Below are positions 3,284-55,257 of a stretch of DNA of 64,000 bases, in pieces. The stretch lies in NCBI RefSeq assembly GCF_050920415.1, contig NZ_CP169309.1; one strand, written 5' to 3'. This stretch comes from Escherichia coli (lineage in GTDB: Bacteria > Pseudomonadota > Gammaproteobacteria > Enterobacterales > Enterobacteriaceae). Position 1 is the stretch's first letter. Each line of letters begins with the position of its first letter. The notes under the pieces were generated by a model. It was given only the letters and a program-made list of their open reading frames with translations, made no database searches and was not told where the DNA came from. The position numbers were made by a program, and so were the translations under genes.

Positions 3284-3360
3284 GGCTACGTAGCTCAGTT
3301 GGTTAGAGCACATCACTCATAATGATGGGGTCACAGGTTCGAATCCCGTCGTAGCCACCA
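3284..3360 (+). tRNA. metT: tRNA-Met (elongator, CAU)
   Basis: 77-nt sequence ggctacgtagctcag...tcgtagccacca with encoded CCA; anticodon loop ctCATaa. Confidence 0.93.
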
Positions 3361-3368
3361 TCTTTTTT

Positions 3369-3453
3369 GCGGGAGTGGCGAAATTGGTAGACGCACCAGA
3401 TTTAGGTTCTGGCGCCGCAAGGTGTGCGAGTTCAAGTCTCGCCTCCCGCACCA
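3369..3453 (+). tRNA. leuW: tRNA-Leu (long variable arm)
   Basis: 85-nt sequence gcgggagtggcgaaattggtaga...gcctcccgcacca. Confidence 0.9.
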
Positions 3454-3476
3454 TTCACCAGAAAGCGTTGTACGGA

Positions 3477-3551
3477 TGGGGTATCGCCAAGCGGTAAGGC
3501 ACCGGTTTTTGATACCGGCATTCCCTGGTTCGAATCCAGGTACCCCAGCCA
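3477..3551 (+). tRNA. glnU: tRNA-Gln (UUG)
   Basis: 75-nt tggggtatcgccaagcggtaaggcaccggtttTTGataccgg...ccagcca. Confidence 0.9.
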
Positions 3552-3585
3552 TCTTCTTCGAGTAAGCGGTTCACCGCCCGGTTAT

Positions 3586-3660
3586 TGGGGTATCGCCAAG
3601 CGGTAAGGCACCGGTTTTTGATACCGGCATTCCCTGGTTCGAATCCAGGTACCCCAGCCA
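3586..3660 (+). tRNA. glnW: tRNA-Gln (UUG)
   Basis: Identical 75-nt copy of the preceding tRNA-Gln(UUG). Confidence 0.9.
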
Positions 3661-3675
3661 TCGAAGAAACAATCT

Positions 3676-3752
3676 GGCTACGTAGCTCAGTTGGTTAGAG
3701 CACATCACTCATAATGATGGGGTCACAGGTTCGAATCCCGTCGTAGCCACCA
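3676..3752 (+). tRNA. metU: tRNA-Met (elongator, CAU)
   Basis: Identical 77-nt copy of the first tRNA-Met. Confidence 0.93.
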
Positions 3753-3800
3753 AATTCTGAATGTGTCGAATGCGTTCGGCAAATTCACAAACCAATTTGT

Positions 3801-3875
3801 TGGGGTATCGCCAAGCGGTAAGGCACCGGATTCTGATTCCGGCATTCCGAGGTTCGAATCCTCGTACCCCAGCCA
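3801..3875 (+). tRNA. glnV: tRNA-Gln (CUG)
   Basis: 75-nt tggggtatcgccaagcggtaaggcaccggattCTGattccgg...ccagcca. Confidence 0.9.
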
Positions 3876-3912
3876 ATTTATTCAAGACGCTTACCTTGTA
3901 AGTGCACCCAGT

Positions 3913-3987
3913 TGGGGTATCGCCAAGCGGTAAGGCACCGGATTCTGATTCCGGCATTCCGAGGTTCGAATCCTCGTACCCCAGCCA
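3913..3987 (+). tRNA. glnX: tRNA-Gln (CUG)
   Basis: Identical copy of the preceding tRNA-Gln(CUG). Confidence 0.9.
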
Positions 3988-11470: not shown

Positions 11471-12379
11471 ATGCAATTACGTAAACCTGCCACAGCAATC
11501 CTGGCCCTGGCGCTTTCCGCAGGCCTGGCACAGGCAGATGACGCCGCCCCGGCAGCGGGCAGTACGCTGGACAAAATCGCCAAAAACGGTGTGATTGTCG
11601 TCGGTCACCGTGAATCTTCAGTACCTTTCTCTTATTACGACAATCAGCAAAAAGTGGTGGGTTACTCGCAGGATTACTCCAACGCCATTGTTGAAGCAGT
11701 GAAAAAGAAACTCAACAAACCGGACTTGCAGGTGAAATTGATTCCGATCACCTCACAAAACCGTATTCCGCTGCTGCAAAACGGCACTTTCGATTTTGAA
11801 TGTGGTTCTACCACCAACAATGTCGAACGCCAAAAACAGGCGGCTTTCTCTGACACTATTTTCGTGGTCGGTACGCGCCTGCTGACCAAAAAAGGCGGCG
11901 ATATCAAAGATTTTGCCGACCTGAAAGACAAAGCCGTAGTCGTTACTTCCGGCACTACCTCTGAAGTTTTGCTCAACAAACTGAATGAAGAGCAAAAAAT
12001 GAATATGCGCATCATCAGCGCCAAAGATCACGGTGACTCTTTCCGCACCCTGGAAAGCGGTCGTGCCGTTGCCTTTATGATGGATGACGCTCTGTTAGCC
12101 GGTGAGCGAGCGAAAGCGAAGAAACCAGACAACTGGGAAATCGTCGGCAAGCCGCAGTCTCAGGAAGCCTACGGTTGCATGTTGCGTAAAGACGATCCGC
12201 AGTTCAAAAAGCTGATGGATGACACTATCGCTCAGGTGCAGACCTCCGGTGAAGCGGAAAAATGGTTTGATAAGTGGTTCAAAAATCCAATTCCGCCGAA
12301 AAACCTGAACATGAATTTCGAACTGTCGGACGAAATGAAAGCACTGTTCAAAGAACCGAATGACAAGGCACTGAACTAA
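11471..12379 (+). CDS. gltI: Glutamate/aspartate ABC transporter periplasmic binding protein
   Basis: 302 aa from MQLRKPATAILALALSAGLAQA signal peptide (track ORF starts further upstream); heads gltIJKL. Confidence 0.9.
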   Translation: MQLRKPATAILALALSAGLAQADDAAPAAGSTLDKIAKNGVIVVGHRESSVPFSYYDNQQKVVGYSQDYSNAIVEAVKKKLNKPDLQVKLIPITSQNRIPLLQNGTFDFECGSTTNNVERQKQAAFSDTIFVVGTRLLTKKGGDIKDFADLKDKAVVVTSGTTSEVLLNKLNEEQKMNMRIISAKDHGDSFRTLESGRAVAFMMDDALLAGERAKAKKPDNWEIVGKPQSQEAYGCMLRKDDPQFKKLMDDTIAQVQTSGEAEKWFDKWFKNPIPPKNLNMNFELSDEMKALFKEPNDKALN

Positions 12380-12536
12380 TTACAAGAACCAGGGGCGGAA
12401 ATTCCAGCCCTCTCGATTGTTACGTAGCACGGACAGACTATACGCCTGATGGTCGTTCCCCATCGGGCCTGAAAACCGCAATACGCTGGGTAACAATCTT
12501 CGAGGGTAGCAGTTAACGCTGCTACCCTCTTTTTTC
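12375..12536 (+). ncRNA. sroC: SroC-type sRNA derived from the gltI 3' end / gltI-gltJ spacer
   Basis: Assigned by position: K-12 SroC is processed from the gltI-gltJ spacer and ends at this terminator; exact 5' end not determinable from sequence. Confidence 0.45.
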
Positions 12537-12538
12537 TG
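12502..12538 (+). terminator. Intrinsic terminator/attenuator between gltI and gltJ
   Basis: gagggtagcagttaacgctgctaccctc hairpin followed by ttttttct. Confidence 0.75.
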
Positions 12539-12548
12539 GAGTAGATTT

Positions 12549-13289
12549 ATGTCTATAGACTGGAACTGGGGTATTTTTTTACAACAAGCCCCGTTCGGCA
12601 ACACCACCTATCTTGGTTGGATCTGGAGTGGTTTTCAGGTGACGATTGCTTTGTCGATCTGCGCCTGGATTATCGCTTTCCTCGTCGGTTCATTTTTCGG
12701 CATTTTACGTACCGTTCCAAACCGTTTTCTCTCCGGTCTGGGTACGTTGTATGTCGAACTGTTCCGCAACGTGCCGTTGATTGTGCAATTCTTTACCTGG
12801 TATCTGGTTATCCCTGAACTGTTGCCGGAAAAAATCGGCATGTGGTTTAAGGCAGAACTAGACCCCAATATTCAGTTTTTCCTCTCCTCCATGCTCTGTC
12901 TGGGACTGTTTACTGCAGCTCGTGTTTGCGAACAAGTACGCGCCGCGATTCAGTCGTTGCCGCGTGGGCAAAAGAATGCCGCGCTGGCAATGGGTCTGAC
13001 GCTACCGCAGGCTTACCGCTACGTACTGTTGCCTAACGCTTATCGCGTTATCGTCCCGCCAATGACCTCTGAGATGATGAACCTGGTGAAAAACTCCGCC
13101 ATCGCCTCGACCATCGGTCTGGTGGATATGGCGGCGCAGGCCGGTAAATTGCTCGACTACTCGGCCCACGCCTGGGAGTCATTTACCGCCATTACGCTGG
13201 CGTATGTGTTGATTAACGCTTTTATCATGCTGGTGATGACGCTGGTTGAACGTAAAGTTCGCCTGCCCGGCAACATGGGGGGCAAATAA
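12549..13289 (+). CDS. gltJ: Glutamate/aspartate ABC transporter permease
   Basis: 246-aa polytopic membrane protein with ABC permease EAA-like loop. Confidence 0.93.
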
Positions 13290-13962
13290 TGTACGAGTTT
13301 GACTGGAGTTCCATTGTTCCTTCCCTGCCATATCTGCTCGACGGGCTGGTGATCACCCTGAAAATCACCATCACGGCGGTGGTCATTGGTATTTTGTGGG
13401 GTACGATGCTGGCAGTGATGCGCTTGTCCAGCTTTGCGCCGATTGCCTGGTTTGCCAAAGCCTACGTTAACGTGTTCCGTTCGATCCCGTTAGTCATGGT
13501 TTTGCTATGGTTTTACCTGATTGTGCCGGGATTTCTGCAAAACGTGCTGGGATTATCGCCAAAAAATGATATCCGTTTAATTTCGGCGATGGTGGCGTTT
13601 TCGATGTTTGAAGCGGCCTACTATTCAGAGATTATCCGTGCCGGTATTCAAAGTATTTCCCGTGGGCAGTCGAGCGCCGCGCTGGCGTTGGGGATGACTC
13701 ACTGGCAGTCGATGAAACTGATTATTCTGCCGCAGGCGTTCCGCGCGATGGTGCCGCTGCTGCTCACTCAGGGCATCGTACTTTTCCAGGATACCTCGCT
13801 GGTGTATGTGTTATCTCTGGCCGATTTCTTCCGTACCGCCTCAACCATTGGTGAGCGTGATGGTACACAGGTCGAAATGATTCTGTTTGCCGGGTTTGTT
13901 TATTTCGTTATTAGCCTTAGCGCATCGTTGTTGGTCAGCTACTTGAAAAGAAGGACAGCATA

Positions 13963-13963
<1 letters not shown>
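13289..13963 (+). CDS. gltK: Glutamate/aspartate ABC transporter permease
   Basis: 224 aa, paralogous to gltJ; start overlaps the gltJ stop. Confidence 0.93.
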
Positions 13964-14688
<725 letters not shown>

Positions 14689-14805
14689 TCACTCTGGCGC
14701 GCATACCCAAGTGCGCGCCATCTCACGCTTTATCGTTTCGCTCCTCGTATCTGTTACATCCTGGCGGTACCCTTGTCGCAAAGAAGCACACAACAAGGAG
14801 CAACA

Positions 14806-15741
14806 ATGGCACTGCCAATTCTGTTAGATTGCGACCCAGGTCATGACGACGCTATCGCAATAGTTCTTGCCCTCGCCTCACCAGAGCTTGATGTCAAAGC
14901 AATTACGTCTTCCTCCGGAAACCAGACTCCAGAAAAAACCTTACGCAATGTTCTGCGTATGCTGACCTTGCTCAATCGCACCGATATTCCGGTAGCAGGC
15001 GGCGCGGTAAAACCGTTAATGCGTGAGTTGATTATCGCGGACAATGTGCACGGCGAAAGCGGTCTCGACGGCCCGGCATTACCGGAACCGACGTTCGCAC
15101 CGCAAAACTGTACGGCGGTGGAGCTGATGGCGAAAACGCTGCGTGAAAGTGCGGAACCTGTCACGATTGTTTCTACCGGGCCGCAAACTAACGTTGCCTT
15201 GCTGCTCAATAGCCATCCGGAACTGCATAGCAAAATCGCCCGTATCGTGATTATGGGCGGCGCAATGGGGCTTGGTAACTGGACGCCAGCCGCCGAGTTT
15301 AATATTTATGTTGACCCGGAAGCGGCAGAAATTGTTTTCCAGTCAGGGATCCCGGTGGTGATGGCCGGTCTGGATGTTACTCATAAAGCGCAAATCCACG
15401 TTGAAGACACCGAGTGTTTCCGCGCGATTGGCAACCCTGTTTCAACCATTGTTGCCGAACTGCTGGATTTCTTCCTCGAATATCATAAAGACGAAAAATG
15501 GGGCTTTGTTGGCGCACCGCTGCATGACCCATGCACCATCGCCTGGCTGTTAAAACCGGAGTTGTTTACCACTGTTGAGCGCTGGGTTGGCGTGGAAACA
15601 CAGGGGAAATATACTCAGGGCATGACGGTTGTTGATTATTATTATCTGACCGGCAATAAACCGAATGCTACTGTAATGGTCGATGTTGATCGTCAGGGCT
15701 TTGTTGATTTACTGGCTGATCGTCTGAAATTTTACGCTTAA
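14806..15741 (+). CDS. rihA: Pyrimidine-specific ribonucleoside hydrolase
   Basis: 311 aa from [15 protein letters not shown] (nucleoside hydrolase DxDxxxDD motif). Confidence 0.93.
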
Positions 15742-15824
15742 CACACCACATTGATTAAGATCACCACGCGTTCACAAGGTGGTCTTAATCTGTTTATCTC
15801 TTTTTCTTTCAAGATATAAATGCA

Positions 15825-17495
15825 ATGGATAATGCAGAACTCGCCATTGGTATCGATCTCGGCACTACCAATAGTTTAATTGCCGTCTGGAAAGACGGTG
15901 CCGCGCAATTAATTCCAAATAAGTTCGGTGAATATTTAACACCATCCATAATTAGCATGGATGAAAATAATCATATTTTAGTCGGAAAACCCGCTGTATC
16001 ACGGCGCACTTCGCATCCGGATAAAACGGCAGCGTTATTTAAACGTGCAATGGGCAGTAATACCAACTGGCGGTTAGGCAGCGACACATTTAACGCACCA
16101 GAACTGTCCTCTTTAGTATTACGCTCATTAAAAGAAGATGCCGAAGAATTTCTGCAACGTCCGATTAAAGATGTGGTGATCTCCGTTCCGGCTTATTTCA
16201 GCGATGAACAACGCAAGCATACCCGTTTAGCAGCGGAGTTAGCCGGGTTAAATGCGGTACGCTTAATTAATGAACCCACAGCAGCTGCGATGGCATATGG
16301 CCTGCATACGCAACAAAATACCCGCTCGCTGGTTTTTGATCTCGGTGGTGGCACGTTTGACGTCACGGTGCTCGAATACGCCACGCCGGTGATTGAAGTT
16401 CACGCCTCCGCGGGAGATAACTTTCTTGGCGGCGAAGATTTTACTCATATGCTGGTGGATGAAGTTTTAAAACGCTCCGCAGTGGCTAAAAACATGCTCA
16501 ACGAAAGTGAGCTGGCAGCCCTGTACACCAGCGTGGAAGCGGCAAAATGCAGCAATCAATTACCGCTGCAAATTAGCTGGCAGTATCAGGAAGAAACGCG
16601 TGAGTGCGAATTTTACGAGAACGAACTGGAAGATTTGTGGTTGCCGCTGCTCAATCGCTTGCGAGTGCCGATTGAACAGGCGTTGCGCGATGCACGTCTG
16701 AAGCCAAGTCAAATCGACAGTCTGGTGCTGGTTGGCGGCGCATCACAAATGCCGCTGGTGCAGCGAATCGCCGTGCGTCTGTTTGGCAAATTACCGTATC
16801 AAAGTTACGACCCGAGTACTATTGTCGCGCTGGGAGCAGCAATCCAGGCCGCCTGCCGCTTACGCAGCGAAGACATTGAAGAAGTGATCCTCACCGATAT
16901 TTGCCCCTACTCCTTAGGTGTTGAAGTTAACCGCCAGGGCGTTTCCGGCATTTTCTCACCGATTATTGAACGAAACACCACTGTACCGGTGTCGCGTGTA
17001 GAAACTTACTCGACCATGCACCCGGAACAGGATTCAATTACGGTTAACGTCTATCAGGGAGAAAACCACAAAGTTAAAAATAACATTCTGGTAGAATCCT
17101 TCGATGTGCCGTTGAAGAAAACCGGGGCTTATCAGTCGATTGATATTCGCTTTAGTTATGATATCAACGGGTTGCTTGAAGTTGACGTGCTTCTGGAAGA
17201 CGGCAGCGTTAAGTCCAGAGTCATTAACCACAGTCCTGTAACATTGAGCGCACAGCAGATTGAAGAGAGTCGGACGCGGTTATCCGCATTGAAAATTTAT
17301 CCGCGCGATATGCTCATCAACCGCACCTTTAAGGCCAAACTGGAAGAGTTGTGGGCGCGGGCGCTGGGTGACGAGCGAGAAGAGATCGGCCGGGTGATCA
17401 CCGATTTTGATGCGGCGTTGCAGTCAAACGATATGGCCCGCGTCGATGAAGTTCGGCGACGGGCGAGCGATTATTTAGCCATTGAGATCCCATAA
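15825..17495 (+). CDS. hscC: Hsp70-family chaperone HscC (Hsc62)
   Basis: 556 aa; Hsp70 signatures IGIDLGTTNS and DLGGGTFD. Confidence 0.95.
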   Translation: MDNAELAIGIDLGTTNSLIAVWKDGAAQLIPNKFGEYLTPSIISMDENNHILVGKPAVSRRTSHPDKTAALFKRAMGSNTNWRLGSDTFNAPELSSLVLRSLKEDAEEFLQRPIKDVVISVPAYFSDEQRKHTRLAAELAGLNAVRLINEPTAAAMAYGLHTQQNTRSLVFDLGGGTFDVTVLEYATPVIEVHASAGDNFLGGEDFTHMLVDEVLKRSAVAKNMLNESELAALYTSVEAAKCSNQLPLQISWQYQEETRECEFYENELEDLWLPLLNRLRVPIEQALRDARLKPSQIDSLVLVGGASQMPLVQRIAVRLFGKLPYQSYDPSTIVALGAAIQAACRLRSEDIEEVILTDICPYSLGVEVNRQGVSGIFSPIIERNTTVPVSRVETYSTMHPEQDSITVNVYQGENHKVKNNILVESFDVPLKKTGAYQSIDIRFSYDINGLLEVDVLLEDGSVKSRVINHSPVTLSAQQIEESRTRLSALKIYPRDMLINRTFKAKLEELWARALGDEREEIGRVITDFDAALQSNDMARVDEVRRRASDYLAIEIP

Positions 17496-17503
17496 ACACG
17501 GCT

Positions 17504-17533
17504 GCCGGATGCGGCGTAAACGCTGCATCCGGC
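17504..17533. repeat. REP-like palindrome / bidirectional terminator between convergent hscC and djlC
   Basis: gccggatgcggcgtaaacgctgcatccggc, 13-bp arms with one mismatch. Confidence 0.6.
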
Positions 17534-17554
17534 ATCGGCGCAAAAAACACATCC

Positions 17555-19006
17555 TCAGCTAAACAACATCGCGATTTTTCCGAGAGCATAGCCTATCACC
17601 AGCACCGTTAAGCTGATTTTGATAATGCTGGTAATGCTCTGTGGTTTTTCATCCTCATCATTTTTTTCTTCGTGGTTTTCAGGTGTTGGCTCATCGACAT
17701 CTTCATCCTCCGGCTCGAGTTTCACTTTCGTCAACAGCATCCGCGTGATAATGGCCTCTAATGGATGAGCATCTCCACCTTCCAGCCTTGTATTAAGACG
17801 GGCCAGCATCTCTTGTTTCGGGAACGCTTCCAGCACAACCTGTTCCGCTACCCGATACAAATCCAGTAACGGTGAATCTTGTTCTGTCTCGCTACCGACT
17901 CTCGATTTCCACCATGCCCATGCTTTGCGTTTGAAGAATAACGACTCAATAAACGATTGACCTAACGGCGATAATTTTCCGCTATGTAAAATTTCCGCCC
18001 ATAACAGCCTCGTCCGGGCGCTCTCACCAGGAACATATTTTAGCGGCTTACCTTGCGCATCAACCATACTTCGCGCTTCGATAACCATCACTAACAGCGC
18101 GAAGTAATCCGGGCAATGTTGCGCACTCCACTGCAGTAATAAATTATCGGCTTGTGTAGATGGATAACTTTCCCAGTAACCACAGAGATCGGCAAGCATG
18201 CTTTCACCCTCGCCGCAGTACAACTGTTGCGCACACTGGTAATATCGGGCATCTTCACTTTCTGGTTCTTCCGTTTGCCACTGTTGCGCTACAGAAATGA
18301 GTTCCGCCATACCTGTTTGCACCGAGCTATACCAGCGCAACAATTTGCGATGCAACTTCGCATCATCAGGAATGAACCACGGACCTTCCATTGCCATAAA
18401 CGCAGTGACATAGTCAGGATGGTAACGGCAGCAGCGTTCCAGCGCGAAGTAATACTCAACAGTCTGGTTCTGCAACGCGACGGGATATTCCAGAAGGCTA
18501 AGGAAATCGAAACAATCACCAGCCTGAATGGCCTCAAGAAAAGCCTCCCTTTCTTCCTCATCCATTCCTTCGCTGTCATTAAACGAATGCCAGTTCAAAC
18601 GCTCTGCCAGCAAAGAAGCACAATTTAATGAAAGATATCGCGCTTCTATAGCGACTGCACACAGCGGCCAGCGTAATTGATCGACATCCTCCATGTTCCA
18701 GGTATTTAATTGCTGAATAAATTTCTGCCAGGCGGAGGGCTGAAAACGATCACTTTCAGAATCCAGTAATGCCCTGAATGCACGTAGTATTTCATGTTCA
18801 GCGGCGGCATCTTTTTCTTCATCATCTGCTTCCTCGACAGGATTTACCGCCAGTCGCAGCGCCTCTTCATAGGCCTGGCGTAATGCTTTAAACCCCTGCG
18901 GATCGGTTTCGGGATGACACAACGGTAAGCGAGCAAGATAAGCCTGGCGGATAATTTCTATTTGCGTCGTGCTTTCAATTTCGAGGATTTGCCAACATGT
19001 TTTCAT
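17555..19006 (-). CDS. djlC: Tail-anchored J-domain co-chaperone of HscC
   Basis: 483 aa; N-terminal J-like domain, C-terminal hydrophobic anchor; paralog of djlB. Confidence 0.9.
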
Positions 19007-19710
19007 AGGTCGCTTACATCCTTAAGCGTTACCGGGCATTCAGGCTGGACAGTTAATGGCTGCCAGGGAAGCGTGGCATAGAAACGGTCGCTTCCCGCTG
19101 CCAGCTCTTCGAACATCCGACTCCCGGCGCTATCGTATTTGTACAGGGTTAGCGCCTCGCGTAGCGAAGCGTTGTCTTCGCACTGAGAAGATTGCCAGTA
19201 GAGACGCCCTAACGAATAGGCGGAAAAATAGTGCATCCAGCTGTGATAGTAATGGTGTGCTCGTATATAGACACGCGATTGCAGCCATAAACTCTCGTCT
19301 TCCGTCAGCCACTTGTTGAGCACACCAACCCGTGATAAAAAACTCATCCGCACATAATCCCAGGCTTTGATTCCCCCTTCCCCACAACACATAGCGGTTT
19401 GGGTAACGAATTGGGTATAAATCAACCCTCTCTCCGAGCCGCCAGCAATTAATGCTTTCCACTCTTCAGGGGAAGAGCGATGCCATGTCAGATATAAGCC
19501 AGCTAAATCATTGGCATGACCATCATCGGTCATCTGATAAATAGTCTGAATTAAATCATCACGATTATTTATTCCCCAGGATGATGAGAGATCGAATTCT
19601 TTTATCCCGGTATACATTTTTGGCGAGTCATGCGCTGGCTTGCAACCCTGATTAAGTATTTCCATGGGTGCAGAAAGCGCAAAAAGAAGATATTGTTCTT
19701 CCTTATTCAT
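19003..19710 (-). CDS. ybeU: DUF1266-family protein
   Basis: 235 aa; paralog of ybeR; stop overlaps the djlC start (ATGA). Confidence 0.88.
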
Positions 19711-19810
19711 TTGTTAATAATCCCTTAAGTGCATTAACTGACTACTTTTTTATTATCGATGAGTATAAACTTGACGTTTTCAAAATAAAAGAAAATAGAA
19801 GTATTCAAGC

Positions 19811-20365
19811 ATGAATAAAAAATTAATGTATATATTCGCAATATTTATAGTTGCGGCAATTACCTGTATTAGCCAACCCAAGAAAACGACCCTGCGCGAT
19901 AAAGCTATGGCGAATTATGTCTTTGATTATTTAAGCTCACCGGGCAGTCTTCCGTTTACCACGGCAGCAACAGAGCTTTCCGCCATTCATGGTCACTCAA
20001 CGTCGCAATATAGACTTGGCGAATTTTATCTTCATGGTAGCGATGGTAAGCCTCTGGATTATACAAAGGCGAGATACTGGTATGAGCAATCAGCGGAACA
20101 GGAAAATCCACGCGCGCAAAGTCAACTGGGATGGATCTACCTGAAAGGTTTGGGAGTCAATCCCGATACCCGTAAAGCAATTCTCTGGTATAAGGAAGCA
20201 GCTGAACAAGGGCATGTTCATGCACAATACACGTTGGGTTTGATCTACAGAAACGGCACGGGCATTAGCACCAACAATTATGAAGCTCGCAAATGGTTAG
20301 AACTGGCGGCAGAGCAACATTATAAAAATGCGGAAAGATTACTTGCAGAGCTTCCCGCACATTAA
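19811..20365 (+). CDS. ybeT: Sel1-repeat (TPR-like) protein with N-terminal signal/anchor
   Basis: 184 aa; repeated GxGV...A..WY..AAEQG Sel1 motifs. Confidence 0.88.
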
Positions 20366-20374
20366 CGTCGACTG

Positions 20375-21802
20375 TCACCCGAACAGATGGAGTATTTTCC
20401 CTATCAAACCGGCAAAGATAAAAATGTAGAAAATAATTTTGATGACGCCCAGGCAGCCCGGCCCACCATCGTCAACGAGCATCGACTGCGGTTGCGGCTC
20501 CGGTTCGACGGTTTGCTTCTCGGTAAAATTTGCCGCCTGAATTAATAATCGACGAATCATTAATGCTTCCAGTGGACAACGATCTTCTGCATCAAGGCGG
20601 CTGACGATCGGCATTAATGATTCTTCTGTCGGTTGGCTGGCCTGAACTAATTGTTTAGCAACTAAATATAATGGCCATAAGGGATGTTCTGTATCACGCG
20701 TGAGTGAGATCCGCGGCTTACGTCCTTTGTGCAAAACCATCTCGACCAGAGAACGCCCCAGCGCAGAGAGTTTTTCATCACTGAGTATTTCGTATAAATG
20801 AAAACGCGTACGAGCGCTGTCACCAGGGACATAAAGTAGCGGTTTTCCCTGATCGTTAACCAGATCACGCGCTTCAATCATCATCACCACTAACGGGTAA
20901 TAATCGACCCGATGCTGACGGCACCATTGCAACATTAAAGCATCCGCCTGGGTGGAGGGATACTCGCGCCAGAAGTCACAAAGTTCTGCCAGCAGGCTTT
21001 CGCCTTCTCCACAATAGACGCGTTGCGCGTATTCATAATAACGCGCATCTTCATTATCAGGTTCAGCTACCCGCCACGACCGGGCGTAATCCAGAAGTTC
21101 GGGGATATCCAGACGGCTTGTGCTATACCAGCGGAGTAAATTTCTGTGCAAATTTGCATCATCGGGGATAATCACTGCGCGATGTTGCGCTAAATACAAT
21201 GTCAGCCATTCTGGATGCGATGACCAAATCCGCGCGAACATTTGGTAAAAATCAATGGTGTCATTTTGTACGGCAACGGGCAGATGCAGAATGGTCTGGA
21301 AGTTAAAAACATTCCCCTTCGCAATGGCATATAAAAAGGATTCCAGTTCTTCTTCGTCTATTTCCCCGACGTTTTCCTCCTGCAACCACCGCAATCTTTC
21401 TGCTAATAACACCACGCACTCGAAGGATAAATGGGCAGTGTTCATGGCTATTGTGCACAGCGACCAGCGTAATTCATCAATATCTTCCATCGAGCAATAA
21501 TTTAATTGCTGAATGAATCGCTGCCAGGCAGAGGGCAGAAAACGTTCGCTATCAGAGGCGAGTAACGCACGAAAGGCGAGCAGAATTTCATGTTCTGCAA
21601 CTTCATGTTCTTCTGGTTGCCAAACAGATTTAGCAGGCGACTGCGCAATCCGTAGCGCGTCCTCATACGCCTGACGAAGTTGTTTAAAACCCTGCGGATC
21701 GGTTTCTGGATGAAAGGACGGTAACAGCGCCAGATAAGCGCGGCGGATAATATCGACGTCAGTCGTTTCCTCTATTTCGAGAATATTCCAGCAATTTTTC
21801 AT
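20375..21802 (-). CDS. djlB: Tail-anchored J-domain protein, HscC co-chaperone paralog
   Basis: 475 aa; about half the residues match djlC by eye; C-terminal hydrophobic anchor. Confidence 0.9.
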
Positions 21803-22506
21803 AGGTCGCTCATATCATTAAGCGTTTCCGGACATGTGGGGTAGTCAGCCAGTGGTTGCCAGGGTAAGGTCGCGTAATATGCATCGTCACTGGCAATTAA
21901 TTGATAAAACATATCATTGCCGGAATCGTCGTATTCTTTACGTGCCAATGTTTCCCGCAATAACGGTAAATTGTCATCATCAGGAGACTGCCAGTATTGC
22001 CGGCCAAAGGTATAACCGGCAAAATACTGCCGCCAGCTGGTATAATAACGTAGCACCCGCAGGTGAAGACGCGATTGGATCCACAGGCTTTCTTCTTCGC
22101 TGAGCCAGTTATTAAGTACGCCCATCCGGCTTAAAAAACCCATACGGACATAATCCCAGGCTTTTATACCGCCTTCGCCACAACATTCGGCAGTGCTGGC
22201 GACAAACTGCGCATAAGCCTGACCTTGCTCATTTAGTTCAGCAAGATAGTCACGCCATTCACATGGAGAATAACGAAACCAGCGGTGATAAAAACCAGCC
22301 AACCGCGCAGCATGACCGTTATCCATCATTCGATGAATTGTCCGCAACAGGTCTTCACGGTCATCAATTCCCCATGAGGAAGAAAGGTCAAAAAAGCGTG
22401 TACCTAAATACATTTTGGGGGATGAATGCGAAGGTAAACAGCATTCATTGCGTATTTCCATCGGAGTGGAAAGTGCAAACAATATTTTTTGCGACTCCAT
22501 GTCCAT
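21799..22506 (-). CDS. ybeR: DUF1266-family protein
   Basis: 235 aa; paralog of ybeU; stop overlaps the djlB start (ATGA). Confidence 0.88.
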
Positions 22507-22663
22507 ATAATTTATCCTTAAACATTTATTTAATGAATGTAAACTACATTGCGAGACTCAGTTATTTATACTTTTCTGACGCAACATAATACGCATAAAA
22601 TAAGGCTTACGCAAAAATGGAATACATAAAAATATAATATGTTTTATCTACAACCATAAGGAA

Positions 22664-23647
22664 ATGATAATGATTTTTACGTCAAGTTGCTGCGATAATT
22701 TATCAATAGATGAGATTATCGAACGTGCTGAAAAAGGCGATTGCGAGGCTCAATATATTGTTGGGTTTTATTATAATCGCGATAGCGCAATTGACTCTCC
22801 GGACGACGAAAAGGCCTTTTACTGGCTGAAGCTGGCCGCTGAGCAAGGTCATTGTGAAGCACAATATTCCTTAGGGCAAAAGTATACCGAGGATAAAAGC
22901 CGTCATAAAGATAATGAGCAAGCCATCTTTTGGCTGAAAAAAGCAGCCCTACAAGGACATACTTTCGCTTCCAACGCCCTTGGCTGGATACTGGATCGTG
23001 GAGAAGACCCCAACTATAAAGAAGCGGTTGTCTGGTATCAGATAGCCGCGGAGAGCGGAATGTCTTATGCGCAAAATAATCTTGGGTGGATGTACAGAAA
23101 TGGCAACGGAGTCACACAAGATTATGCGCTGGCATTTTTCTGGTACAAACAAGCTGCATTGCAAGGCCATAGTTACGCACAAGACAATCTGGCCGATCTT
23201 TATGAAGACGGTAAAGGTGTTGCTCAAAACAAGACACTCGCCGCATTCTGGTATTTGAAAAGCGCACAGCAGGGTAATCGGCATGCCCAGTTTCAAATTG
23301 CATGGGATTATAACGCTGGCGAAGGGGTGGACCAGGACTATAAGCAAGCGATGTACTGGTATCTGAAGGCTGCCGCTCAGGAAAGCGTCGGCGCTTACGT
23401 TAACATCGGCTATATGTATAAACACGGTCAAAGCGTTGAGAAGGATTATCAGGCCGCCTTTGAATGGTTTACGAAAGCCGCTGAATGCGATAATGCCACT
23501 GCCTGGTATAACCTTGCCATTATGTATCATTACGGAGAAGGAAGACCTGTCGATCTCCGACAGGCTCTCGATCTGTATCGTAAAGCTCAGTCATCCGGTA
23601 CCAGGGATGTCAGTCAAAAAATCCGTGAGATTGAAGATTTACTGTAG
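22664..23647 (+). CDS. ybeQ: Sel1-repeat protein
   Basis: About 325 aa with at least six Sel1-type repeats; exact start (22664 or 22670) uncertain. Confidence 0.85.
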   Translation: MIMIFTSSCCDNLSIDEIIERAEKGDCEAQYIVGFYYNRDSAIDSPDDEKAFYWLKLAAEQGHCEAQYSLGQKYTEDKSRHKDNEQAIFWLKKAALQGHTFASNALGWILDRGEDPNYKEAVVWYQIAAESGMSYAQNNLGWMYRNGNGVTQDYALAFFWYKQAALQGHSYAQDNLADLYEDGKGVAQNKTLAAFWYLKSAQQGNRHAQFQIAWDYNAGEGVDQDYKQAMYWYLKAAAQESVGAYVNIGYMYKHGQSVEKDYQAAFEWFTKAAECDNATAWYNLAIMYHYGEGRPVDLRQALDLYRKAQSSGTRDVSQKIREIEDLL

Positions 23648-23716
23648 AGATAAAAACAAGGGCCGGGGAATTTTATTCGGCCCATATTCTCTTTATTGCT
23701 GTTTGAAATCGGACCA

Positions 23717-24199
23717 TTAAGGCTCGAACGGGCGTCTCTGGAACTGATCATGACCACATTTCGGGCATAGCGTCAGCACTTCCGGTGTGTAGATTGGGAG
23801 ATGGAAGTGACATTTCTCGCAGACCAGATTCCCCAGACCTACGACTTCCCCGCTGTGATAAACCCCGTGATGATTGAGATCCTGGAAAACTTCGCGCCAC
23901 TCAAGTTGCGTTTTATCGGTAATGTCCGCCAGTTCCTGCCAGAGGCTTTCTTTAATCACCCGCATAAAGACGCTGTCAGACTCTTCTTTCAGGCTCTCTT
24001 CATAGCTCATGGCGAACTCTTCCAGGTCACGTCTGACAGCTCGCGTCAGCTCATCGACCTCGGTTCGCGTTAACTCCCCTGTTTTTATTACGCGCTCGCG
24101 CGCCTGTTCCACCAGTGCGTCGATATCACGTTCGCCATTACGCAGGCGTTCGCTCAGTGACGCGACCAGTTCACGGTAATATTGAGCAACCTTGTTCAT
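23717..24199 (-). CDS. ybeL: DUF1451 zinc-ribbon protein
   Basis: 160 aa; C-terminal CEKCHFH...CPKCGH zinc-ribbon motif. Confidence 0.88.
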   Translation of the reverse strand: MNKVAQYYRELVASLSERLRNGERDIDALVEQARERVIKTGELTRTEVDELTRAVRRDLEEFAMSYEESLKEESDSVFMRVIKESLWQELADITDKTQLEWREVFQDLNHHGVYHSGEVVGLGNLVCEKCHFHLPIYTPEVLTLCPKCGHDQFQRRPFEP

Positions 24200-24434
24200 C
24201 GTTTCATCTCCCGGGTCGTTAACTGACTATAATAATAGACGTTCTTTGTTCCTTGCTTTGCTATTACGCCCACAAACTCTGTAAATTAATGTATGAATAA
24301 TCCGGGCATCATTTCAACGTCGAGTGCGCGAAAGGCTGTTTTGACGCGGACGTTTGGGCTATGCTATGCGGATCTGAAAAACCACCTCTAACGCTACTTT
24401 TGTAGCCGTATTGAAAACAGGACCACTGGCTGCC

Positions 24435-27017
24435 ATGCAAGAGCAATACCGCCCGGAAGAGATAGAATCCAAAGTACAGCTTCATTGGGATGAGAAGCGC
24501 ACATTTGAAGTAACAGAAGACGAGAGCAAAGAGAAGTATTACTGCCTGTCTATGCTTCCCTATCCTTCTGGTCGACTACACATGGGCCACGTACGTAACT
24601 ACACCATCGGTGACGTGATCGCCCGTTACCAGCGCATGCTGGGCAAAAACGTTCTGCAGCCAATCGGCTGGGACGCGTTTGGTCTGCCTGCGGAAGGCGC
24701 AGCGGTGAAAAATAACACCGCGCCAGCACCGTGGACGTACGACAACATCGCGTACATGAAAAACCAGCTCAAAATGCTGGGCTTTGGTTATGACTGGAGC
24801 CGCGAGCTGGCAACCTGTACGCCGGAATATTACCGTTGGGAACAGAAATTCTTCACCGAGCTGTATAAAAAAGGCCTGGTATATAAGAAGACTTCTGCGG
24901 TCAACTGGTGCCCGAACGACCAGACCGTACTGGCGAACGAACAGGTTATCGACGGCTGCTGCTGGCGCTGCGATACCAAAGTTGAGCGTAAAGAGATCCC
25001 GCAGTGGTTTATCAAAATCACCGCTTACGCTGACGAGCTGCTCAACGATCTGGATAAACTGGATCACTGGCCAGACACCGTTAAAACCATGCAGCGTAAC
25101 TGGATCGGTCGTTCCGAAGGAGTGGAAATCACCTTCAACGTTAACGACTATGACAACACGCTGACCGTTTACACTACCCGCCCGGACACCTTTATGGGTT
25201 GTACCTACCTGGCGGTAGCGGCAGGTCATCCGCTGGCACAGAAAGCGGCGGAAAATAATCCTGAACTGGCCGCCTTTATTGACGAATGCCGTAACACCAA
25301 AGTTGCCGAAGCTGAAATGGCGACGATGGAGAAAAAAGGCGTCGATACTGGCTTTAAAGCGGTTCACCCATTAACGGGCGAAGAAATTCCCGTTTGGGCA
25401 GCAAACTTCGTATTGATGGAATACGGCACGGGCGCAGTTATGGCGGTTCCGGGTCACGACCAGCGCGACTACGAGTTTGCCTCTAAATACGGCCTGAATA
25501 TCAAACCGGTTATCCTGGCAGCTGACGGTTCTGAGCCAGATCTTTCTCAGCAAGCCCTGACTGAAAAAGGCGTGCTGTTCAACTCTGGCGAGTTCAACGG
25601 TCTTGACCATGAAGCGGCCTTCAACGCCATCGCCGATAAACTGACTGCGATGGGCGTTGGCGAGCGTAAAGTGAACTACCGCCTGCGCGACTGGGGTGTT
25701 TCCCGTCAACGTTACTGGGGCGCGCCGATTCCGATGGTGACGCTGGAAGACGGTACTGTAATGCCGACCCCGGACGACCAACTGCCGGTGATCCTGCCGG
25801 AAGATGTGGTGATGGACGGCATTACCAGCCCAATCAAAGCTGATCCTGAGTGGGCGAAAACCACCGTTAACGGTATGCCTGCGCTGCGTGAAACCGATAC
25901 TTTCGACACCTTTATGGAGTCCTCCTGGTACTATGCGCGCTACACTTGCCCTGAGTACAAAGAAGGTATGCTGGATTCCGAAGCGGCCAACTACTGGCTG
26001 CCGGTGGATATCTACATTGGTGGTATCGAACACGCCATTATGCACCTGCTCTACTTCCGCTTCTTCCATAAACTGATGCGTGATGCAGGCATGGTGAACT
26101 CTGACGAACCAGCAAAACAGTTGCTGTGTCAGGGTATGGTGCTGGCGGATGCCTTCTACTATGTTGGCGAAAACGGCGAGCGTAACTGGGTTTCCCCAGT
26201 TGATGCTATCGTTGAACGTGACGAGAAAGGCCGTATCGTGAAAGCGAAAGACTCGGCAGGCCATGAACTGGTTTATACCGGCATGAGCAAAATGTCCAAG
26301 TCGAAGAACAACGGTATCGACCCTCAGGTGATGGTTGAACGTTACGGCGCGGACACCGTTCGTCTGTTTATGATGTTTGCTTCTCCGGCGGATATGACTC
26401 TCGAATGGCAGGAGTCTGGCGTGGAAGGGGCTAACCGCTTCCTGAAACGTGTCTGGAAACTGGTTTACGAGCACACTGCAAAAGGTGATGTTGCAGCACT
26501 GAATGTCGACGCGTTGACTGAAGATCAGAAAGCACTGCGTCGCGATGTTCATAAAACTATCGCTAAAGTGACCGATGATATCGGCCGTCGTCAGACCTTC
26601 AACACCGCGATTGCGGCAATTATGGAGCTGATGAACAAACTGGCGAAAGCACCGACCGATGGCGAGCAGGATCGCGCCCTGATGCAGGAAGCGCTGCTGG
26701 CGGTAGTCCGTATGCTTAACCCGTTCACCCCGCACATCTGCTTCACGCTGTGGCAGGAACTGAAAGGCGAAGGCGATATCGACAACGCGCCGTGGCCGGT
26801 TGCTGACGAAAAAGCGATGGTGGAAGACTCCACCCTGGTGGTGGTGCAGGTTAACGGTAAAGTCCGTGCCAAAATCACTGTTCCGGTGGACGCAACGGAA
26901 GAACAGGTTCGCGAACGTGCTGGCCAGGAACATCTGGTAGCAAAATATCTTGATGGCGTTACCGTGCGTAAAGTGATTTACGTACCGGGTAAACTCCTCA
27001 ATCTGGTCGTTGGCTAA
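24435..27017 (+). CDS. leuS: Leucyl-tRNA synthetase
   Basis: 860 aa from MQEQYRPEE; class I HMGH and KMSKS motifs. Confidence 0.95.
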
Positions 27018-27031
27018 GCGCGGGAGGAAGC

Positions 27032-27613
27032 GTGCGATATCTGGCAACATTGTTGTTATCTCTGGCGGTGTTAATCACCGCCGGGTGTGGCTGGCATCTG
27101 CGTGATACTACGCAGGTTCCTTCCACTATGAAGGTCATGATCCTGGACTCTGGCGACCCGAACGGGCCGTTAAGTCGTGCGGTGCGTAACCAGTTACGTC
27201 TGAACGGTGTCGAGTTGCTTGATAAAGAAACCACCCGTAAGGACGTTCCATCCCTGCGTTTGGGTAAAGTGAGCATCGCGAAAGATACCGCATCGGTATT
27301 CCGTAACGGTCAAACAGCAGAGTATCAGATGATCATGACGGTCAATGCGACCGTGTTGATCCCCGGCCGTGACATCTACCCGATTAGCGCCAAAGTCTTC
27401 CGTTCGTTCTTCGATAACCCGCAAATGGCGTTAGCGAAAGATAACGAACAAGACATGATCGTAAAAGAGATGTACGACCGTGCTGCCGAACAGCTGATTC
27501 GTAAGCTGCCAAGCATCCGTGCTGCGGATATTCGTTCCGATGAAGAACAGACGTCGACCACAACGGATACTCCGGCAACGCCTGCACGCGTCTCAACCAC
27601 GCTGGGTAACTGA
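27032..27613 (+). CDS. lptE: LPS assembly lipoprotein LptE
   Basis: 193 aa; lipobox LITAGC; conserved position after leuS. Confidence 0.93.
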
Positions 27614-28644
27614 TGATTCGGTTGTACCCAGAACAACTCCGCGCGCAGCTCAATGAAGGGCTGCGCGCGGCGTATCTTTTACTTGGTAACGATCCTCTGT
27701 TACTGCAGGAAAGCCAGGACGCTATTCGTCAGGTCGCTGCGGCACACGGATTCGAAGAACACCACACTTTTTCCATTGATCCCAACACTGACTGGAATGC
27801 GGTCTTTTCGTTATGCCAGGCCATGAGTCTGTTTGCCAGTAGACAAACGCTATTGCTGTTATTACCAGAAAACGGACCGAATGCGGCGATCAATGAACAA
27901 CTTCTCACGCTCACTGGACTTCTGCATGACGACCTGCTGTTGGTCGTCCGCGGTAATAAATTAAGCAAAGCGCAAGAAAATGCTGCCTGGTTTACTGCTC
28001 TTGCGAATCGCAGCGTGCAGGTGACCTGTCAGACGCCGGAGCAGGCTCAGCTTCCCCGCTGGGTTGCTGCGCGTGCAAAACAGCTCAACTTAGAACTGGA
28101 TGACGCGGCAAACCAAGTGCTCTGCTACTGTTATGAAGGTAACCTGCTGGCGCTGGCCCAGGCACTGGAGCGTTTATCGCTACTCTGGCCAGACGGCAAA
28201 CTGACATTACCGCGCGTTGAACAGGCGGTGAATGATGCCGCGCATTTCACCCCTTTTCATTGGGTTGATGCTTTGTTGATGGGCAAAAGTAAGCGCGCGT
28301 TGCATATTCTTCAGCAACTGCGTCTGGAAGGCAGCGAGCCGGTTATTTTGTTGCGCACATTACAACGAGAACTGTTGTTACTGGTTAACCTGAAACGCCA
28401 GTCTGCCCATACGCCACTGCGTGCGTTGTTTGATAAACATCGCGTTTGGCAGAACCGCCGGGGCATGATGAGTGAGGCGTTAAATCGCTTAAGCCAGCCG
28501 CAGTTACGTCAGGCCGTGCAACTCCTGACACGAACGGAACTCACCCTCAAACAAGATTACGGTCAGTCAGTGTGGGCAGAGCTGGAAGGGTTATCTCTTC
28601 TGTTGTGCCATAAACCCCTGGCGGACGTATTTATCGACGGTTGA
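27613..28644 (+). CDS. holA: DNA polymerase III delta subunit
   Basis: 343 aa; start overlaps the lptE stop. Confidence 0.93.
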
Positions 28645-41673: not shown

Positions 41674-41706
41674 CAAAAAAAACCCGCTGATTAAGCGGGT
41701 TTTGAA
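41674..41706. terminator. Bidirectional intrinsic terminator between convergent crcB and cspE
   Basis: aaaaaaaacccgctgattaagcgggttttg. Confidence 0.75.
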
Positions 41707-41722
41707 TTCTTGCTGACGTATC

Positions 41723-41932
41723 TTACAGAGCGATTACGTTTGCAGCAGAAGGGCCTTTGGCACCGTTAGTGATTTCGAACTCTACGCGCTGACCTTCAGC
41801 AAGAGTTTTAAAACCATTAGTCTGGATTGCAGAGAAGTGTACGAACACGTCTTTGCTGCCGTCTTCCGGAGTAATGAAACCGAATCCTTTGGACTCATTA
41901 AACCACTTAACGTTACCTTTAATCTTAGACAT
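41723..41932 (-). CDS. cspE: Cold-shock-domain protein CspE
   Basis: 69 aa from [20 protein letters not shown] (RNP1 motif); the track ORF is an upstream in-frame extension. Confidence 0.93.
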
Positions 41933-42106
41933 CAAAATTACCTTTACATGAAAAATAGACACAAATGCTGTGTCGGTTACCAGTACACCAATTGTGGTAC
42001 GCTTTGTCCAGTGCAACTTTACTAAAAAGTGATAAAAGTCGCGTTATTTTTGATGTTAATTATTTTACTCATTGATTTTAAAGAAGTTACTAAAATTTCA
42101 TTTGTC

Positions 42107-55028: not shown

Positions 55029-55257
55029 TCCTCTGATTTACAAAAGACGCTAATTCGTCTTCCATAAACTATGACGATTAAGATTTATACATAATGCGCT
55101 GCATTGAGGAATTCCCTGAATGTGACGCAAATCACTTCAAAGAGTGAGCAACAGTCAGTATCATCATGTGAGTTAAACCCTCGCCGCCTGACGGTGAGGG
55201 TTTTCTTTTGGGTATGTTTATCTGCGACACTCGCAGTACCGACGACATGGAGTAAAA

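Follow-up and report, generated by a model that had tools for sequence, protein, structure and literature searches.

The Hsp70 gene hscC travels with a J-protein gene and a DUF1266 gene: a candidate three-component chaperone system with a duplicated gene pair in enterics

We analysed a 64,000-nucleotide stretch of DNA from Escherichia coli (assembly GCF_050920415.1, contig NZ_CP169309.1), hereafter the window, and in it an island at 15.8-23.7 kb, between gltJKL-rihA and ybeL-leuS, delimited with open reading frames (ORFs) and the RefSeq annotation of a 100%-identical genome. The island encodes the specialised Hsp70 HscC, two pairs formed by a DUF1266 gene and a J-protein gene (ybeU-djlC and ybeR-djlB) and two Sel1-repeat proteins (YbeT and YbeQ). 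Judged from gene neighbourhoods, its conserved core is a trio: HscC, a membrane-anchored J-protein with an HPE motif, and a DUF1266 protein. We give about even chances to the reading that the island specifies a specialised Hsp70 machine of three components, of which the targeting half underwent duplication in enterics. The same balanced confidence applies to the proposal that the HscC system has its missing third subunit in the YbeU-type DUF1266 proteins, acting as an adaptor or as its single dedicated client, in a distinct membrane-associated machine present across Gammaproteobacteria. The locus and the HscC-DjlB/C pair belong to textbook knowledge; no trace of the DUF1266 link was met in the searchable literature.

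The trio linkage was followed from DUF1266-seeded loci, going from each DUF1266 gene to its neighbours. When genomes were scanned with a DUF1266 alignment, 27 loci came back. The DUF1266 gene was followed by a DjlB/C-like J-protein gene and then by an HscC-type Hsp70 gene in 24 of them, the other 3 being cut by contig ends. These 24 loci come from four Escherichia species, Klebsiella spallanzanii, three Pectobacterium species, Gilliamella, about 15 Pseudomonas species and Marinobacter; in one of them, that of Pectobacterium sp. PL152, the J-protein gene is cut short and hscC is split over three ORFs. Every complete locus examined had an HscC-type Hsp70 beside the DUF1266/J pair, and the trio was also recovered around DUF1266 representatives with profile E-values from 1e-45 to about 1e-20. 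A first reading of the DNA, made from the sequence alone, had offered the co-occurrence of DUF1266 and J-domain genes outside this locus as a test of its views; they were found together, and with Hsp70, in many lineages. The gene order is not fixed. In one lineage (loci L042, 2018-6696, and L043) the order on one strand is Hsp70, a 717-aa J-protein with TPR Pfam hits and a DjlB_C_2nd match, then DUF1266. In another lineage DUF1266 is followed directly by Hsp70 on a 5.4-kb contig that ends 90 nt later, where the J-protein gene could not be assessed. Distant DUF1266 members showing no Hsp70 link comprised a TPR-DUF1266 fusion and tandem DUF1266 genes on a short contig. A further copy was seen on the 138-kb plasmid p_Cp2 of Erwinia persicina, where the overlap is between a DUF1266 gene and a long Djl-like gene whose annotation is fragmented (J domain, two hypothetical proteins, DUF805). 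A large plasmid thus also bears the cassette, which is apparently decaying there.

The two genes of a pair also overlap. Both overlaps of the window are ATGA and sit inside an identical 15-nt string, agcgacctATGAaaa, in keeping with the near-identical junctions noticed at first reading. Among 33 junctions read at the sequence level in Gammaproteobacteria and metagenomes, all 33 exhibited a stop/start overlap (29 ATGA, 3 TAATG and one overlap of 14 nt), so that the conserved translational coupling proposed earlier holds well outside this locus. In two further places (L044 and L045), for which called gene coordinates only were used, the J-protein gene directly follows DUF1266 with a gap of 3-4 nt. 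Four-base gene overlaps are common in bacterial operons, and at larger distances the DUF1266 superfamily is found mostly away from Hsp70 genes. Both points speak for DUF1266 just riding along in the operon, functionally unconnected with the chaperone, its overlap being an accident that was inherited. We hold this to be very improbable, because the adjacency persists at 33-40% protein identity (down to about 20-25%), in three gene orders and in unrelated genomic contexts, and because the pair was duplicated as a unit whose partners have stayed matched since.

To our knowledge there are only three types of bacterial Hsp70, of which HscC is one, and the HscC-DjlC/DjlB Hsp70/J-protein system of E. 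coli K-12 is said to have been described by Kluck et al. in 2002. The protein of the window is named 'molecular chaperone HscC' in RefSeq, belongs to the HscC subfamily and is 97.3% identical to HscC of E. coli O157:H7; it matched the DnaK and HscA NCBIfam models with E-values of about 1e-113 to 1e-115, under the curated equivalog cut-offs. Passages of a chaperone review present HscC-DjlC/DjlB of K-12 as a two-component system in which the HscC ATPase is stimulated specifically by DjlC, DjlB being assumed to act likewise by similarity (PMC8215388). Of the statement that DjlB and DjlC are known HscC co-chaperones, the DjlC part therefore rests on shown stimulation and the DjlB part on assumption. 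According to the same passages, both J-proteins are tail-anchored, with inner-membrane insertion shown for DjlC; Cd2+ sensitivity rises on deletion of hscC, or of djlB and djlC together; ultraviolet (UV) resistance is also attributed to HscC; and the clients of HscA and HscC are few, both Hsp70s having evolved together with specialised J-proteins (PMC8215388).

DjlC and DjlB are 50% identical from end to end (483 aa, E 3e-160), in keeping with the match over about half their residues seen at first. Their Pfam J-domain matches are weak (E 0.035 and 0.0016 for the two proteins), and the J-domains were recovered by structural comparison; their motif is HPE, not HPD. The same HPE was read in 27/27 extracted DjlB/C-family J-proteins. 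It is known in DjlB and DjlC and is the sole tolerated variant of HPD, as stated in part of a second review (PMC13254874). Each protein has one hydrophobic segment, at its extreme C-terminus (residues 457-483 in DjlC and 446-475 in DjlB), which agrees with the tail anchor assigned to both from the sequence. All 11 J-proteins scanned have one to three C-terminal hydrophobic segments, the long homologues having two or three. Outside the enterics, the length of the J-proteins is mostly about 880-950 aa and in a few cases 560-720 aa; the C-terminal hydrophobic segments of those scanned, two or three per protein, show a weak similarity to DUF805. A search of DjlC against PDB sequences gave nothing meaningful. 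Separately, Escherichia sp. MOD1-EC7003 carries between ybeL and ybeQ a third Djl-like gene (L006, 1648-3003), split into two ORFs, 27-29% identical to DjlC/DjlB over the full length and lacking a preceding DUF1266 gene; the window has no such gene.

YbeU matches DUF1266 over its full length (Pfam PF06889, E 2.6e-45, model positions 2-175 of 175) and is 58% identical to YbeR over 235 aa (E 9e-105), and the two are indeed the clear paralogues that they had been taken for. The structural model of YbeU, with a predicted local distance difference test score (pLDDT) of 93.8 and a predicted template modelling score (pTM) of 0.91, is an all-α bundle of about 12 helices. This is a distinct fold, for which no relative has been solved, and not the J-like fold of a Pam16-type partner, and a search with the DUF1266 profile against PDB sequences returned nothing meaningful. 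Compared with O157:H7, ybeU is the best conserved gene of the island (18 synonymous versus 3 nonsynonymous codon changes). An exhaustive profile search of the protein library gathered at least 1435 DUF1266 clusters (50% identity). Residues W45, G113, W117, D118, R121, R127, E139, W158, G168, W172 and W216 are conserved across the whole superfamily. No natural fusion of DUF1266 with a J-domain was found among 43 multidomain DUF1266 proteins, whose partner domains were TPR (repeats in 5-8 of the 43), Cu_amine_oxidN1 and SLH. In the searchable literature, 'DUF1266' turned up only in a transcriptome table (PMC7582179) and not together with HscC, and term look-ups met no mention of it in the portions of the two chaperone reviews that they covered (PMC8215388, PMC13254874).

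Several database entries touching YbeU and YbeR were recorded along the way. YbeR weakly matches PRK11380 (E 3e-4), an NCBIfam equivalog of 353 aa named 'hypothetical protein'; this is a hint that enterics have one more, distant family resembling DUF1266. A contig end of 'Paenibacillus sp. USDA918EY' encodes a peptide 96% identical to E. coli YbeU, and a Trichuris trichiura 'DnaJC13' is 93% identical to YbeU; both look like contamination (AFDB A0A077ZGN2 and A0A2X3M2D5 are among the odd entries). A 627-aa E. coli 'Hsc56 co-chaperone' entry is apparently a YbeU-DjlC read-through call at the ATGA overlap.

The putative YbeU-DjlC complex was modelled as a single chain, YbeU-(GGGGS)6-DjlC(1-438), from a paired alignment of 22 rows. 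The fusion model has a pLDDT of 82.9 and a pTM of 0.77, with a disordered linker. YbeU makes up one third of the chain, and we estimate that a freely floating YbeU would cap the pTM near 0.6. The value obtained lies above this cap and therefore suggests a confidently placed YbeU-DjlC interface, as indirect, model-based support for the complex.

From these elements the following mechanism can be proposed. The ancestral cassette would be self-contained, with a cytosolic all-α DUF1266 protein, a translationally coupled HPE J-protein and an adjacent HscC. The DUF1266 protein would bind the solenoid of its cognate J-protein at about 1:1, and the complex would be tethered to the inner membrane. DUF1266 would serve as the substrate-selecting or regulatory subunit, the HPE J-domain being the part that recruits and fires HscC. 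In enterics, YbeU-DjlC and YbeR-DjlB would form two alternative targeting complexes sharing one HscC.

The main rival to this proposal makes DUF1266 a dedicated client of HscC, by analogy with IscU: the J-solenoid would capture YbeU or YbeR and HscC would remodel it at the membrane. The synteny, the overlap and the pTM evidence apply to it as well, and it agrees with the few clients and co-evolved J-proteins that passages of PMC8215388 ascribe to HscA and HscC. The isc operon, as is established, encodes a client with its own J-protein and Hsp70. A superfamily living mostly free of Hsp70 is also what would be expected if a protein with its own activity had been put under chaperone control in one lineage. 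However, an HscC-binding motif was not assignable, and co-translation at 1:1 is more what one expects of a subunit than of a substrate subject to turnover. The private DUF1266 of each J-paralogue fits a client or a subunit equally well. On the whole we regard a client role of this kind as rather unlikely.

Other observations weigh against DUF1266 as a chaperone subunit. The residues conserved across the superfamily are also kept in DUF1266 members with no Hsp70 nearby, some of which bear cell-wall-associated domains (Cu_amine_oxidN1, SLH); the core DUF1266 activity may therefore be ligand binding or enzymatic and unrelated to chaperoning, and a ligand or an activity of its own is probable for the domain. 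The putative complex is argued from the gene overlap and from the indirect pTM reasoning, with its shallow paired alignment and artificial linker. Adaptor and client roles are inseparable in silico. Finally, the island decays in many E. coli strains, and its function is therefore dispensable.

The history of the pairs was read from other enterics. The tandem duplication seen in the sequence-only reading is supported, the paralogous proteins being 50% and 58% identical in pairwise alignment; DNA similarity between the two copies is limited to patches of about 68%, and the duplication is therefore old. In Salmonella and Citrobacter the order is ybeQ-like, ybeR-djlB, ybeU-djlC, hscC, with 11 and 72 nt between the two pairs and no ybeT. 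All 8 pair proteins of these two genera are closest to the E. coli paralogue in the same position. It follows that duplication took in the two-gene pair as one unit, earlier than the split of Escherichia, Salmonella and Citrobacter, and each DUF1266 has kept its own J-protein, the partners remaining unshuffled since the duplication. Klebsiella spallanzanii has, at the same ybeL/gltL site, a single pair equidistant from both paralogues and no Sel1 gene. An additional 412-aa gene with no Pfam match lies between hscC and rihA in Salmonella (L038, 15082-16320); the window lacks it.

These comparisons separate the Sel1 genes from the pairs. As first described, YbeT and YbeQ are both made of Sel1 repeats (Pfam PF08238): 3 in YbeT (E 6e-11 to 2e-7) and 8 in YbeQ (7 at E 1e-3 or better and one at 0.0023). 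The two proteins differ in length and share generic Sel1-repeat similarity alone (37%), and no DNA similarity between their genes was detectable. YbeT has a hydrophobic N-terminus (residues 2-23), which from its sequence suggests export or membrane anchoring; YbeQ has no hydrophobic segment. Orthologues of ybeQ occupy the same position in Salmonella (49% identity) and Citrobacter (60%). Outside Escherichia, a search with a Sel1-repeat hidden Markov model (HMM) showed the surroundings of the trio, out to 8 kb, to be free of Sel1 genes at every locus of the DUF1266 genome scan, namely in Klebsiella spallanzanii, Pectobacterium, Gilliamella, Pseudomonas and Marinobacter, and met no Sel1 repeats inside the J-proteins of the scanned loci. 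From this distribution, ybeQ is an add-on limited to Escherichia, Salmonella and Citrobacter, and the absence of ybeT between the Salmonella and Citrobacter pairs makes ybeT an insertion limited to Escherichia. As far as gene content tells, the Sel1 proteins are later lineage-specific accessories and no part of the core.

The sequence-only reading had instead seen a three-part unit, with DUF1266, the J-protein and an obligate Sel1 protein as both the functional and the duplicated module. Its DUF1266/J part stands; its Sel1 part does not, Salmonella and Citrobacter having no ybeT and Klebsiella no Sel1 gene. In the window each pair does have a divergent Sel1 gene, the position of ybeQ next to ybeR-djlB is kept in Salmonella and Citrobacter, and TPR-DUF1266 fusions exist elsewhere. 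Nevertheless ybeT is missing from Salmonella and Citrobacter in spite of their two pairs, the trio is free of nearby Sel1 genes in five other taxa, and the two Sel1 proteins differ in their N-termini, with genes that do not align as DNA. In addition, the constraint on ybeT and ybeQ is among the lowest in the island (lowest of all on ybeT, with 31 synonymous versus 17 nonsynonymous codon changes relative to O157:H7), and ybeQ is a pseudogene in O157:H7 EC4115. We consider an obligate three-part module improbable. As a general model it is largely refuted by the absence of Sel1 genes near the trio outside Escherichia, Salmonella and Citrobacter.

The island differs from its surroundings in composition. 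The GC content at third codon positions (GC3) is 0.40-0.48 in six island genes and 0.51 in hscC, compared with 0.58-0.63 in gltJKL, ybeL, leuS and lptE; rihA (0.52) and holA (0.55) fall between the island and the other flanks. The block is thus more AT-rich than its flanks, leuS and gltL included, as had been remarked. The H-NS regulon as listed includes the island genes, and over-expression of SlyA raises ybeT and the ybeU operon (PMC5797941). A DUF1266 gene is 308-fold higher in an expression table on temperature and H-NS/H-NS2 in strain 042 of enteroaggregative E. coli (EAEC) (PMC7582179). A promoter/terminator consensus scan of the island detected fewer promoter-like sites than in shuffled sequences, and none in the divergent intergenic regions. 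The atypical composition and the H-NS listing (PMC5797941) fit the old horizontal acquisition suggested earlier. Its site is shared by Escherichia, Salmonella, Citrobacter and Klebsiella, which would place such an acquisition earlier than the divergence of these four genera.

The island is accessory, at least 80% of it being held by 3689/5426 complete E. coli genomes, and its constraint is below that of the flanks, with synonymous/nonsynonymous ratios of about 2-6 to 1 relative to O157:H7. The whole island is replaced by IS1 in E. coli EM20-18-50; djlB-ybeR and part of ybeQ are deleted in E. coli R13; djlC and ybeQ have internal stops in E. coli O157:H7 EC4115. The island of the window is 100% identical to that of E. 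coli MFDS1022581 and about 94.5% identical to that of most E. coli. Its flanks were compared with O157:H7 over positions 12549-28644 and show 92-97% nucleotide identity (gltJ 94.9%, leuS 97.0%, lptE 91.6%), and only 2 of 4449 matching records reach at least 99%. The flanks being diverged to a similar degree as the island, the whole window comes from a divergent Escherichia lineage filed as E. coli.

An AT-rich block in the H-NS regulon (PMC5797941), variably present among E. coli, duplicated, decaying and with a copy on an Erwinia plasmid, could also be read as an Hsp70-based anti-phage or conflict system in a variable, H-NS-silenced region. Against this, PADLOC-DB 2.0 had no match for HscC, DjlC, DjlB, YbeU or YbeR; the Sel1 proteins match the N-terminus of the PtuA model weakly and in a repeat-type manner (PADLOC, E 2e-4 and 5e-4); no PHROG matched DUF1266 or the J-protein; and in the phage collection nothing matched except two fragments, 1.5 and 2.6 kb long and without annotation. 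Escherichia, Salmonella, Citrobacter and Klebsiella have one fixed chromosomal site for the locus, the genes next to it in Pseudomonas and other taxa serve housekeeping, signalling and transport and not defence, and the island contains no nuclease, protease or toxin-like effector domain. A combined literature search for HscC/Hsp70 with phage defence returned nothing. With no specific PADLOC or PHROG match, we set the defence reading aside and see little chance that it is correct.

The features of the island are collected in Table 1. The gene layout first drawn up agreed with the ORFs and with RefSeq. Elsewhere in the window, Rfam features comprise the small RNA (sRNA) sroC upstream of gltJ (12375-12537), seven tRNA genes (3284-3984), a cspA-type thermoregulator leader on the minus strand (41675-42088) and the rnk leader (55104-55212).

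Table 1. Genes, overlaps and intergenic regions of the hscC island (positions in the window)
Feature	Position	Strand	Basis	Description
hscC	15825-17495	+	ORF + RefSeq	556 aa, specialised Hsp70, convergent with djlC
djlC	17555-19006	-	ORF + RefSeq	N-terminal HPE J-domain, TPR-like α-solenoid, C-terminal tail anchor
ybeU	19003-19710	-	ORF + RefSeq	Cytosolic DUF1266 protein, 235 aa, first in ybeU-djlC operon
ybeU/djlC ATGA stop/start overlap	19003-19006	-	Read from sequence	
ybeU-ybeT divergent intergenic region	19711-19810	.	Gene layout	100 bp; promoters presumed, H-NS/SlyA-responsive
ybeT	19811-20365	+	ORF + RefSeq	Short Sel1 protein, 3 repeats, N-terminal hydrophobic signal/anchor
djlB	20375-21802	-	ORF + RefSeq	djlC paralogue, same J-HPE + solenoid + tail-anchor build
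ybeR	21799-22506	-	ORF + RefSeq ('DUF1266 domain-containing protein')	ybeU paralogue, first in ybeR-djlB operon
ybeR/djlB ATGA stop/start overlap	21799-21802	-	Read from sequence	
ybeR-ybeQ divergent intergenic region	22507-22669	.	Gene layout	163 bp
ybeQ	22670-23647	+	RefSeq start 22670, longest ORF start 22664	Cytosolic Sel1 protein, 8 repeats

More than 20 years after the biochemistry of HscC, reviews go no further than sensitivity to Cd2+ and UV and the conjecture that its clients are membrane proteins. In distantly related Gammaproteobacteria, a DUF1266 protein shares its inheritance, duplication and translation with the J-protein specific to HscC. This is a testable lead on the role of HscC, and provides a first functional context for the YbeU-type branch of DUF1266. 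It raises a concrete question, namely whether YbeU and YbeR bind DjlC and DjlB, and whether as adaptors or as clients. If the proposed three-component machine is real, the enteric duplication would give two specificities on one Hsp70, and DUF1266 would point to the target of HscC. The picture of the locus itself is corrected in that its Sel1 genes are lineage-specific extras.

The closest known system is the published HscC-DjlC/DjlB of K-12, with which the island shares the locus, the gene order, the RefSeq names and the combination of an HscC-type Hsp70 with two tail-anchored class C HPE J-proteins. The published version does not include the co-translated DUF1266 genes conserved across Gammaproteobacteria. 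The TPR/Sel1 co-chaperones of Hsp70 (Hop, CHIP, SGT and bacterial Sel1 proteins) resemble YbeQ and YbeT by their TPR-like repeats encoded beside an Hsp70 system, and in other lineages TPR is fused to DUF1266 or lies within the J-protein. They differ in that YbeQ and YbeT are restricted to a few enteric genera, with a hydrophobic N-terminus in YbeT alone. In Pam18(Tim14)-Pam16(Tim16), working with mitochondrial Hsp70, the arrangement differs in that the DUF1266 partner would bind the solenoid and not the J-domain. The island also recalls HscA-HscB-IscU, in which, as established, a specialised Hsp70 of low abundance is joined by a J-protein of its own, other than DnaJ, and by a small partner encoded alongside, and in which the non-J domain of HscB binds that partner. 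For the island this likeness may serve as an analogy: DUF1266, with its distinct all-α fold, has no relation in sequence or fold to the components of that system, the Djl proteins are membrane-anchored with a TPR-like solenoid, and no Fe-S genes lie near the island.

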